From the IMG/VR virus record IMGVR_UViG_3300029092_000236: 29,083 nucleotides of DNA; one strand, 5' to 3'. This document shows positions 25,759 through 29,083 of the stretch, one piece after another (the stretch's first letter is position 1; each line of letters starts with the position of its first letter). The translations under genes and the position numbers were made by a program. A model generated the notes under the pieces. It was not told where the DNA came from. It did not search any database and saw only the letters and a list, made by a program, of their open reading frames with translations. This DNA is from a virus. Taxonomy: Duplodnaviria > Heunggongvirae > Uroviricota > Caudoviricetes.

Positions 25759-26378
25759 TGACCACATTTACCAATAAAGAACTGATTAAAGAAATCAAAG
25801 AACGAATCAGCAGCCTAGAGGTTCGAGACGATATTGAGCGCCGTGCTTATGAAATTGCTCTGGCATCGCTAGAAGAGGAGCCGGTGGCATGGCTGCATTC
25901 AGAAAATGGCTTAGGTATTCCGGCAATAACGAGGAGTAAAAACATTGCTGACAGTTGGTTATCAAAGGGCTGGTATGTTCAGCCGCTATATATAGCCAAG
26001 CCAGTGCCGGTGGTGCCAGATGCTCGTCCGTCTTTAAATAATGGCATAGTCGGCTTTGATGAAGGCTGGAACGCCTGCCGCGCCGCCATGCTTAATGGTG
26101 CCGAACCTGTAAGCCAGACTTACAAGTTGAACGAGCTGTCGGGCAACTCTCCGGTAACTCCGGATGGTTGGATAAGCTGTAGTGAGCGAATGCCGAACGA
26201 TAAACAGTATGTTTGGTGTTGGGGTAAGTCTTACGGCTGGACTGAGTACGATACCTTCGAAGGGTATTACGATTGTTCGAGAAACAAATGGTGGGCAGTT
26301 ACTGACAATGGGGAAGAACCGGCATCGAAAGTAACCCACTGGATGCCGCTACCGGAGCCGCCGCAGGAGGTGAAGTAA
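25758..26378 (+). CDS. DUF551-like domain protein (206 aa)
   Basis: Start overlaps the preceding stop (TAATG). C-terminus ...KVTHWMPLPEPPQEVK matches the recalled DUF551 terminal motif. Confidence 0.5.
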   Translation: MTTFTNKELIKEIKERISSLEVRDDIERRAYEIALASLEEEPVAWLHSENGLGIPAITRSKNIADSWLSKGWYVQPLYIAKPVPVVPDARPSLNNGIVGFDEGWNACRAAMLNGAEPVSQTYKLNELSGNSPVTPDGWISCSERMPNDKQYVWCWGKSYGWTEYDTFEGYYDCSRNKWWAVTDNGEEPASKVTHWMPLPEPPQEVK

Positions 26379-26572
26379 TGAACAACTTAATGACAACTAA
26401 ACAAGTCGCCGATTTCTGTGGTGTTTCAGTATCGACAGTTCTTCGCTGGAACAGCGTAAACAGGAGAACTGGCCAGAAATACAGGCCTGACTTTCCAGAT
26501 CCTGATATTAAATCCTGCCCAAATAAATGGGCATCACACAAGATTTACAGATTTGCGGGAGTGATTGATTAA
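26378..26572 (+). CDS. AlpA/Xis-type excisionase (small HTH protein)
   Basis: 64 aa MNNLMTTKQVADFCGVSVSTVLRWNSVNRRTGQKYRPDFPDP..., the AlpA-like pattern. Strong RBS AGGAGGTG. Last gene of the early operon, near the integrase. Confidence 0.6.
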   Translation: MNNLMTTKQVADFCGVSVSTVLRWNSVNRRTGQKYRPDFPDPDIKSCPNKWASHKIYRFAGVID

Positions 26573-26854
26573 TATGTATTAGCTTAGATGTGAGCTGACA
26601 CATCTATGATTAGATGCCAAACCAAATCTGAGCGTCCACTCTTTAACAAGAGCGGACGTTACCAATGACCATATGACATGAATCGATAAGATCAAAACAT
26701 TATCGCCAAGAAATGTCATACCATTGATACAAATAAAATTGATTACCCCCTTACTCTTGTTGAAAAGTTAGTCGTAGAGTACCTATCGCAATGTAATCAG
26801 CTTTAATCATCTGAAAATTACTCCTTAAAAATTAGCTTTTATATACTGAACAAA

Positions 26855-27574
26855 TTAAATCTCTGTTTCTTTTCCTGTTCGGCTCAACCAATACTCCATT
26901 GTTTGAGTATGAATCTTTTCAGCGTATATTTTATCAATTAATTTATCTCGTTTTTCTTTAATGACTTTACGCAGTGAATCATATAACATAAAAAAACGTT
27001 CATCATCTTCCTCATTATTACCATAATTTATTTGATTGAGTTCTGAAAAAATATGATAGCACCTTTTTTTCTTGGTCCCCGGCAATATTAAAACCAAGCC
27101 ACATTGATCATATTCAAATTCACCTTTATGGGCAGCAAAGTTATGTCTAACATTCATAATAGAATCATGTAAATCTCTGTATTTTTCTGGCACATGCTTT
27201 CTCTGCAATGTGAATCGACGCCCTTTCGCCTCTGTAAAACACTTACCGTAAGTAACAACTTTTGATATAAATAAAGACTTTAATATTAGATTCTTTTCTA
27301 AATCAGGATAAATAAAGTGTTGTTCTCTATTAATGTTATTACAAATGTTTTTTATTATATTCTCCCAACCAATAACATTCCGAAGATCTTTATCCAGCAA
27401 CTGTAAGGCCACATATTGTTCTACAAAGCGGCCTTTTAAAGGTATTCGTGGTAATATTACACCTTTCTGCTTATAAACTCTTTCTATCGTATTATCTGGA
27501 TATTGGATCTTCCTTATTTCTATTCCGTCTTCTTCTGATACCCTTACTAATGGTTCATTTTTTAACTTTGACAT
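26855..27574 (-). CDS. Hypothetical AT-rich cargo protein (239 aa) with possible HEPN-like R-x5-H motif
   Basis: ATG at 27572-27574 with AGAGGG RBS. The coding sequence and flanks are visibly much more AT-rich than neighbouring phage genes. Contains RHNFAAH. No family confidently recognised. Confidence 0.6.
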   Translation of the reverse strand: MSKLKNEPLVRVSEEDGIEIRKIQYPDNTIERVYKQKGVILPRIPLKGRFVEQYVALQLLDKDLRNVIGWENIIKNICNNINREQHFIYPDLEKNLILKSLFISKVVTYGKCFTEAKGRRFTLQRKHVPEKYRDLHDSIMNVRHNFAAHKGEFEYDQCGLVLILPGTKKKRCYHIFSELNQINYGNNEEDDERFFMLYDSLRKVIKEKRDKLIDKIYAEKIHTQTMEYWLSRTGKETEI

Positions 27575-27859
27575 GTTAACCCTCTTAAATAAAAAACTAA
27601 CTTTATCCAGATAGTGTCCGTTAAGAAGTTTTCGTTACAACTAAGTTTCTAGGTAAATCATGAATCAACCTATAGTATCAAAAACATTTGGTGGTAAACA
27701 TCTGCATTTATCAAATAGCAGGAGCGATTTAGGGGCATAGGGATAGTGATGATATCTATACCCGTGCCCTCTTATGTCAACACAATGGCGTAAACTTAAC
27801 GCTCACATCTCGCTCAAAGTGTGCTAGGAGATTTGGTTATGTTCAGGTGATACAAACCG

Positions 27860-29083
27860 TCAGTTTGAATCAGAGATAGTACAATTAACAATCGATTCAA
27901 CCCTCTTCCACCATGCCAGGTAAGCTTTACGCTGTTCTTCTAGATAATCGCTCTTATCATAAACTTGCCATACCCCTGGCAGCTTATGACCAAGCATAAT
28001 TTCTGCGATATGAGGCGCAGTAAGATCAGAAAAATTTGTTCGTGCTGTCCGTCTCAAGTCATGAAGAGACCAATGAGGGAATTGATATCCTAAACGCCGC
28101 CACGCGTACTGCATTAAATTGTAAGGCAGCGACTGTAATGATGTCCTACCGACTGGCTCCCTGCTTCCTTCCTTAGTAAAAAGCATATCGGAACCGTTGT
28201 TCATAGAGATAACGTATTTTATAAGCTCTTCAACCGGTTCAATAATGGGCCGCTTTAGCGGTTCGCCTGTTATGTCCCCTGTCTTATGTCGTTCAGGTGG
28301 TACAGTCCATACCTTATTTATGAAATCAAAATCACCCACCCTAGCAGTAATTAGCTCCGAACTACGGCAACCAAAATGCAGTAATAGTTTAATGAAGGCC
28401 CGGTATTTGGGAACCATTCTAGAGCCATCGATCGCAGCATAAAGAATTTTAATTTCATCGTGTGTCAGAAACCGTTTCTTCTGACCTTTACGGATATCCA
28501 TATCTTTACCCGTGATATCCGACAGCGGGCGAGTTTCAATAAGCTTTCTCTTATACGCCCAGACATGGGCCTGCTTTGCGTTAATTAGCAATCGGTCTGC
28601 TATTGCTGGAGTCTTAGTGCTAAGAGGCTCCAGGACTTCTAACCAATCATGCAATGTAGCTGCATCGTGAGGGATATTCCCGATTTTAGAGAACAGGTGC
28701 AGCTCAAACGAGCGGAGTATCTGTTCAGAACCCTTTTTATTTTTTACACAATATGCTTCATACCAGGCACGGATCACAGACTCTACCGTCATGGCTTCAG
28801 TAGCTTTTCGTTTTTCAGCCTGCTTGACCAATCGTGGATTACGGTTTGACTCGAGTTCACCACGGAGACGGATAACTTCTTCTCTGGCCTCTTTTAATCC
28901 AGTTGCCGGGTAAGTTCCGATATCAAGACGCTCACCTTTCCCTGCCCATTGATAACGATATTGAAACACTACGCGACCTTTCGGTGATACTCTGACAGAC
29001 AGACCATCACGATCGGATTTAACCAAAACCTTATCACGTTCCTTTCCAACGACTGAACGCAACCACGCATCAGACAGCGCCAT
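27860..29083 (-). CDS. Tyrosine integrase (P4-type)
   Basis: 407 aa starting at the window edge (MALSDAWLRSVVGKERDKVLVKSDRDGLSVRVSPKGRVVFQYRYQWAGKGERLDIGTYP...). C-terminal catalytic region with HDLRRTARTN, LGHK and a downstream Tyr. Confidence 0.9.
   Translation of the reverse strand: MALSDAWLRSVVGKERDKVLVKSDRDGLSVRVSPKGRVVFQYRYQWAGKGERLDIGTYPATGLKEAREEVIRLRGELESNRNPRLVKQAEKRKATEAMTVESVIRAWYEAYCVKNKKGSEQILRSFELHLFSKIGNIPHDAATLHDWLEVLEPLSTKTPAIADRLLINAKQAHVWAYKRKLIETRPLSDITGKDMDIRKGQKKRFLTHDEIKILYAAIDGSRMVPKYRAFIKLLLHFGCRSSELITARVGDFDFINKVWTVPPERHKTGDITGEPLKRPIIEPVEELIKYVISMNNGSDMLFTKEGSREPVGRTSLQSLPYNLMQYAWRRLGYQFPHWSLHDLRRTARTNFSDLTAPHIAEIMLGHKLPGVWQVYDKSDYLEEQRKAYLAWWKRVESIVNCTISDSN

Follow-up and report, generated by a model that had tools for sequence, protein, structure and literature searches.

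The window, by which we mean the whole 29,083 nt stretch of DNA analysed here, is identical in sequence to Escherichia phage 2H10 (NC_049950), and it raises the question of what is encoded by gp29, a gene annotated there as 'hypothetical protein' that lies between the excisionase and the integrase. A first-pass annotation of this DNA had described a 239-aa open reading frame with its own ribosome-binding site at this location. The reading frame is present as described, on the minus strand: gp29 (YP_009909736 / WP_000040219, a member of PHROG 8440) spans positions 26855-27574, begins with ATG, and is preceded by a GAGGG Shine-Dalgarno sequence (27580-27584, minus strand) that is separated from the start codon by 5 nt (27575-27579). 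The tyrosine integrase gene (27860-29083, minus strand) is directly upstream of gp29 in the same orientation, and the excisionase gene xis (26378-26572, plus strand) is convergent with it, both as annotated in NC_049950. The AT-richness that had been remarked upon for the gene and its flanks was also evident on calculation, with a GC content of 31.3% for gp29 versus 47.8% for the whole window, and of 0.30-0.32 over positions 26600-27600 versus 0.44-0.52 in the regions on either side.

The R-x4-6-H motif is conserved across a large unannotated family

A possible relationship of gp29 to HEPN ribonucleases had been proposed on the basis of the sequence RHNFAAH (R143-H149; codons at 27128-27148, minus strand), which fits the HEPN motif R-x4-6-H. 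At least one R-x4-6-H was present in 79% of shuffled gp29 sequences (mean of 1.5 occurrences; n=20,000), and the native protein contains two, RHNFAAH and R120..H127; finding RHNFAAH in one sequence is therefore not above chance. The aspect of the motif that does exceed chance is its conservation across homologs. Among 171 near-full-length homologs, R143 is invariant (171/171) and H149 is present in 170/171, while only three residues occur at position 144, H (101 members), N (65 members) and D (5 members), giving the pattern R-[H/N/D]-x4-H. The conservation maximum of the entire protein in these 171 members is the 9-residue window starting at position 143, and besides the motif itself the residues D63, Y109, K111, R119, H136, G151 and E/D156 are near-invariant. 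The motif proposal was thus upheld by the homologs but not by the single-sequence match from which it had been drawn. gp29 is a genuine gene that is under selection.

The initial search for homologs recovered 25 close clusters of approximately 240 aa from enterobacteria, together with a more distant relative (25-28% identity) from a filamentous prophage of Vibrio, and an exhaustive profile search (E <= 1e-3) extended the family to 924 or more clusters (50% identity), nearly all of them stand-alone proteins of 230-250 aa. Members are distributed across the Gamma- and Betaproteobacteria, with outliers in the Alphaproteobacteria, Ignavibacteriota and Bacteroidota. Scans of gp29 against Pfam, PADLOC and NCBIfam gave no match, and the sole match in the family scans was to PHROG 8440, to which the rest of the family also maps and which is listed as 'unknown function'. 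PADLOC-DB v2.0.0 returned no matches for gp29 and isolated, single weak ones among 101 homologs. No Pfam domain at threshold and no name is attached to members of the family, and a broad profile search of a 5.8-billion-protein database found no Pfam-labelled intermediate, all 66 of the 66 matches being unlabelled members of the family itself.

Predicted structure and profile matches point to a probable divergent HEPN family

HEPN domains are defined as four-helix up-down bundles of two alpha-hairpins, often with an insert separating helix 2 from helix 3, and carry an R-x4-6-H motif in which the arginine is followed by a polar residue, usually N, D or H; an upstream acidic residue, in an E-x3-[KR] element on helix 2, is often found spatially near the motif (Anantharaman et al. 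2013, PMC3710099). AlphaFold models of gp29 (pLDDT 86.5) and of a Photobacterium homolog sharing 33% identity (pLDDT 91.4) were compared, and these two independent models have a common architecture. An N-terminal beta-sheet domain of three to four strands (residues 1-45, with strands at 9-15, 18-24 and 30-36; 27440-27574, minus strand) is followed by a helical region, delimited from the models and the fold searches (26912-27430, minus strand), with modelled helices at residues 49-79, 92-111, 130-148 and 188-221. The motif, which is the predicted catalytic site, is located in the last turns of helix 3 (residues 130-148 in gp29 as modelled; 123-140 in the Photobacterium homolog). Helices 2 and 3 are joined by an 18-residue loop (112-129) bearing the conserved residues F113, G118 and R119, and a beta-hairpin (residues 157-180; 27035-27106, minus strand) is inserted between helices 3 and 4, where it adjoins the motif. 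If gp29 has a sensor or gate, it would most naturally lie in the N-terminal sheet, a proposed sensory or regulatory module, and in the motif-adjacent hairpin. Weak Pfam matches to BOFC_N (E about 0.13) were seen in five of 84 members (alignment A5), and might reflect the N-terminal beta domain.

Set against the published definition, the family is predicted to form a four-helix up-down bundle, with R143-x5-H149 at the end of helix 3, an H, N or D at residue 144, and an insert between helices 2 and 3. The conserved acidic element (E/D61-K-D63-L-R/K65, with D63 in 169/171 members) sits on helix 1, whereas that of HEPN domains is placed on helix 2 (PMC3710099).

Profile comparisons gave a recurrent signal below the curated thresholds. 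gp29 itself matched no HEPN model in Pfam. HEPN_AbiU2 (PF18734) was the only recurrent Pfam match in the family, being found in 14/185 members, all below the gathering threshold, drawn from two non-overlapping sets (3/101 members at E <= 0.1 and 11/84 at E <= 1; best E 0.0022); the strongest noise family, for comparison, matched 5 members with an E of 0.13. In one member, P0159, the match (E 0.015; 15.2 bits, under the 26.8-bit gathering threshold) spans positions 113-142 of the 193 in the profile, and corresponds to helix 3 with its H...R-x5-H block. P0159 alone matched HEPN_AbiU2 among the subgroup consensus and singleton sequences, and the consensus of the whole family matched only HEPN_Swt1 (E 0.44, below threshold), on the motif segment, with the rest of its matches being noise. 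The gp29 family belongs to no existing Pfam HEPN family. When gp29 and two profiles were searched against the PDB, no chain was related by sequence or profile at E values up to 10; matches to Fic (E 0.56), sucrose phosphorylase and a designed bundle were discarded as noise.

Structure prediction had been suggested as a check on the HEPN fold, and its outcome was divided, since the models do show a four-helix bundle with the motif at the end of helix 3, but Foldseek against the PDB returned nothing below E 0.1. The best structural matches are HepT-type HEPN toxins of HEPN/MNT modules, and chemoreceptor sensor domains, flagellins and designed bundles reached equal fold scores in both fold-search runs. 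The fold searches are compatible with HEPN, yet they are not decisive, as generic four-helix bundles score equally well. These results must be weighed against the alternative that gp29 is a helical bundle without nuclease activity, in which D63, Y109, K111, R119, H136, R143, H149 and E156 would line a pocket for a ligand or protein partner, and which would serve some other lysogenic-conversion or regulatory role. In favour of this alternative, the fold matches are generic four-helix bundles, ligand-binding chemoreceptor domains with equal Z among them, the Foldseek results are non-significant, no curated HEPN model is passed, and the invariant residues exceed the needs of a minimal HEPN site. 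An invariant arginine and histidine with an H/N/D-only neighbour, at the exact topological position of the HEPN motif, are nevertheless hard to explain in this way, and the one Pfam signal that recurs is that of a HEPN family, on the motif helix. We therefore regard a non-nuclease role as unlikely and consider that the gp29 family is probably a divergent HEPN family, a reading carried by motif conservation, predicted topology and the recurrence of HEPN_AbiU2, in the face of Pfam scores that are all sub-threshold and fold matches that are generic.

gp29 occupies a variable slot next to the integrase

Comparison with sibling prophages showed that homology ends at 26608-26642, just past xis, and restarts at 27829-27873, at the 3' end of int. 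These borders, conserved among the siblings, delimit an AT-rich cargo island of approximately 1.2 kb (26643-27850; ~33% GC), of which gp29 is the sole ORF. The gene was found in 71/5,426 complete E. coli genomes, and all E. coli contexts inspected were prophages at the yjjG attachment site. Other prophages at this site carry unrelated cargo in the same slot, consisting of two small ORFs, of a 377-aa ORF, or of a 436-aa and an 81-aa ORF, all with a GC content of 32-33% (loci L007:3424-4400, L008:3179-4312 and L009:2768-4316). The integrase-proximal slot is demonstrably variable, a point that had been put forward for checking in related prophages. The accompanying suggestion that the position is a hotspot for defence genes was borne out as far as variability is concerned, but not by the identity of the other cargo, which had no match in Pfam or PADLOC; these alternative ORFs are candidates for further accessory or defence genes. 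With its presence/absence polymorphism, deviant composition and co-travelling upstream segment (see below), gp29 has the features of a 'moron'.

The proximity to int could also mean that gp29 is an accessory factor in site-specific recombination, that is, an integrase cofactor, and the order of int followed by the gene, on the same strand, does recur in lambdoid and P2-like prophages. However, only 71 of the 700 E. coli genomes that carry the 2H10 integrase have gp29, the integrase in other prophages being accompanied by unrelated cargo instead, the gene is compositionally foreign, and 38 of 44 homolog loci have no integrase nearby. A cofactor role is accordingly the least probable of the explanations considered here, and we give it very little credence.

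Scans of the island for Rfam families, repeats, promoters and terminators revealed neither an RNA family nor any notable flanking repeats, and the gp29 strand yielded no consensus promoter. An imperfect GC-rich inverted repeat (GGGCATAGGGATAG...CTATACCCGTGCCC; 27733-27770) is located approximately 90 bp past the int stop codon, at the edge of the segment that is common to a Cronobacter copy of the gene. It is not a typical terminator, because no T-run follows it, and may serve regulation or recombination. In a further prophage (L006), window positions 26142-29083, comprising the 3' end of a DUF551 gene, xis, the island and int, are 97.6% identical, and the early region is otherwise different (RecT, Gp157, Ea22-like). 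This alignment indicates that int and its cargo are swapped as one unit between mosaic prophages.

Homologs are found in lambdoid, P2-like and filamentous prophages

A lambdoid prophage of Cronobacter contains an 85%-identical gene at the prophage end, after umuDC-like genes. DNA homology to this copy extends from 157 bp upstream of the ATG through 8 bp past the stop codon, indicating that a short upstream region travels with the ORF. This 157-bp non-coding segment (27575-27731, minus strand) is ~81% identical in the Cronobacter prophage, in which the GAGGG Shine-Dalgarno sequence is kept, and it is presumed to hold the gene's own promoter and 5'UTR. In Cronobacter sakazakii (L012:8001-11544) two prophages are present ~1.8 kb apart, with one 276-aa ORF of unknown function between the homolog-bearing lambdoid end and the integrase of a P2-like prophage.

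P2-like prophages of Enterobacter, two Yersinia species and Citrobacter have a CI-type repressor gene, int and the gp29 homolog in this order on one strand, with the start of the homolog overlapping or closely trailing the int stop codon and with host genes beyond. In P2, C and int are co-transcribed from Pc in the lysogen. Given this transcription and the placement of the gene in the repressor-int unit, the P2-like homologs would be expressed during lysogeny. Among IMG/VR loci, the gene lies within 5 kb of a provirus end in 30/35 and has int directly upstream on the same strand in 16/35. Two IMG/VR proviruses carry a truncated copy (185 aa) and a frameshifted copy (91 + 116 aa) after int (L085:1510-2067 and L094:1510-2066), from which it follows that the gene decays in some prophages.

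The distant homolog found in the initial search is carried by Vibrio phage 10N.286.54.E4_PE002 (PQ189351, L002), a 10.9-kb filamentous (Tubulavirales) prophage, and looks like accessory cargo on this inovirus. The depositors labelled it 'endonuclease'. Behind it come a 368-aa ORF, for which neither Pfam nor PADLOC gave a match, and an IS629-like transposase fragment.

Integron copies are complete single-gene cassettes

Chromosomal integrons also carry the gene: in Photobacterium sp., V. proteolyticus and V. alginolyticus it has attC-type repeats on either side, and these copies are complete single-gene cassettes with no space for a second gene. The array of Photobacterium sp. J15 (L015:1-16702) has at least 19 attC-like repeats, and its cassettes include DUF2971, DUF2726, FRG, OGG and SAD_SRA-HNH proteins as well as many domainless ORFs. 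In V. alginolyticus (L021:5661-14735) the array contains the homolog, a TacA/acetyltransferase (TacAT) pair and an OsmC-like gene, with VCR-type attC repeats detected up to about 10076. A CBASS-type cluster (SAVED, SMODS/DncV-like and a second SAVED) starts just past the last detected attC, ~2.7 kb downstream of the homolog, and a PAAR-containing gene cluster is found upstream at this locus.

Across 44 loci the tyrosine integrase was the only recurrent neighbour family, with no recurrent partner or antitoxin gene, and the gene averages 8.5 GC points under its flanks, being more than 5 points lower in 27/41 loci. No MNT nucleotidyltransferase gene is near it, and the 2H10 island and the integron cassettes hold this ORF alone. 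The gene therefore moves singly, with no partner, in linkage to prophage ends, integrases and integron cassettes.

This distribution bears on two further explanations, in both of which gp29 would serve purposes other than the defence of its host against phages. A selfish toxin of HEPN type could stabilise a prophage or an integron array by post-segregational killing, or act in competition between strains: chromosomal integrons are rich in toxin-antitoxin cassettes, which stabilise them, one homolog adjoins the TacAT cassette, and no structural match is better than those to HEPN toxins of HEPN/MNT modules. The solitary state of the gene, both in its cassettes and across the 44 loci, speaks against an addiction system, and we consider this explanation distinctly unlikely. 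Alternatively, gp29 could be a counter-defence or fitness factor that serves the phage carrying it during lytic growth or establishment, for instance by degrading host RNA or a signalling molecule. Its carriage by three unrelated phage types (lambdoid, P2-like and filamentous) and the position of one homolog ~2 kb from an Apyc1-like metallo-beta-lactamase gene would fit such a role, but the gene is also found outside phages, in integron cassettes and at isolated chromosomal sites, and the P2-like copies are placed in the lysogenic repressor-int unit and not in lytic operons. This makes a counter-defence role improbable, more so than that of a selfish toxin.

A model for gp29 as a latent RNase

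The reading that we prefer is that gp29 is a stand-alone, latent HEPN-like RNase carried as prophage cargo for abortive infection, and on analogy and the evidence above we judge the chances of this to be evenly balanced. In this model the lysogen would produce gp29, with transcription starting in the upstream region inherited along with the gene and/or reading through from int, and the protein would be kept inactive as an oligomer. A signal from infection by another phage would switch it on, and the active protein would cut RNA (tRNA, mRNA or rRNA) independently of metal ions, with the result that translation would halt and infection abort, protecting the lysogen population. Each step of this scheme is an inference: that the lysogen expresses gp29, that the protein is latent as an oligomer, that a trigger activates it, that it cleaves RNA and that it confers defence. 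gp29 is a credible anti-phage abortive-infection candidate of an already known kind. A more specific version, which we put forward tentatively and hold to be rather less probable, is that gp29 founds a single-protein Abi family in which a novel N-terminal beta domain and the beta-hairpin sense a phage component and release the HEPN site, with D63, Y109, K111, R119, H136, R143, H149 and E156 as its uncommonly elaborate set of catalytic residues; such a protein would be portable and need no partner, whether carried by a lambdoid, a P2-like or a filamentous prophage or as a minimal integron cassette.

What is new is a sizeable unannotated family, and what is of a known kind is solo HEPN-like cargo of prophages and integrons. 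Current defence annotation misses the whole family. If the model is true, a function would be assigned to roughly a thousand clusters of 'hypothetical proteins', and defence-annotation tools would gain a new model. It would also provide, in a genetically tractable E. coli phage, a second and unrelated solo-HEPN prophage immunity beside HepS (discussed below), so that one could compare the gating of a shared RNase chemistry by different sensor modules. Because the gene is found both at prophage edges and in integron cassettes, it would, if defence is confirmed, also illustrate how minimal defence genes are exchanged between these two gene pools, and the other AT-rich unknown genes in the yjjG slot would be the natural next candidates.

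Comparison with known systems

HepT toxins (PDB 7AE2 and 5YEP) and YutE (1YLM) are minimal domains of ~130-145 aa with 7-10% identity to gp29, and HepT is neutralised by its cognate MNT nucleotidyltransferase, whereas gp29 has no MNT neighbour and possesses extra beta elements. Vpc_cass2 (PDB 3JRT), an integron-cassette HEPN protein, is 166 aa long and 5-10% identical to gp29. Esos, encoded by a cassette of the V. cholerae superintegron, has anti-phage activity and is characterised only as having a 'HEPN-like domain' (bioRxiv 10.1101/2024.07.02.601686); as an integron-cassette HEPN-like anti-phage gene it resembles gp29, a likeness drawn by description only.

Among abortive-infection and defence proteins, lactococcal AbiU2 (PF18734, HEPN_AbiU2) shares with the gp29 family an abortive-infection context and the sub-threshold matches on the motif helix, and differs in being encoded in operons with Sel1-repeat or R-M genes (PMC3710099), whereas the gp29 family is solitary. 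ApeA is a single-protein HEPN defence that is described as cleaving host tRNA (bioRxiv 10.64898/2026.01.26.701840), and it resembles gp29 as a one-gene system that couples a HEPN effector to an N-terminal sensing region. It is set apart by the lack of a PADLOC match for gp29 and by its absence from the families matched by the 101 homologs.

The closest parallel in biology is HepS (STM14_3211) of the Salmonella prophage Gifsy-1, a 'HEPN Solo' abortive-infection protein (PMC13043305; PDB 9OIJ/9OIK); the LT2 Gifsy-1 prophage does not have hepS. HepS is constitutively expressed, has no partner and forms an inactive tetramer; when a siphovirus infects, its tail-tip protein J opens this tetramer, and HepS then cuts tRNA anticodon loops (PMC13043305). 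Both proteins are prophage-encoded, are shorter than 250 aa, have a single HEPN-type domain and no partner, and occupy an accessory lambdoid position, and homologs are often near integrases and phage genes. In HepS, which is roughly 200 aa long (residue 202 is cited), the motif is R-x4-H at about residue 100 (PMC13043305); gp29 differs in its spacing (x5 versus x4), in the position of its motif (143 versus 100), in its extra beta elements and in showing no detectable sequence relationship to a PDB chain, and 9OIJ/9OIK were not among the top fold matches. Compared by description and by structure searches, HepS offers the best guide to how gp29 might work.
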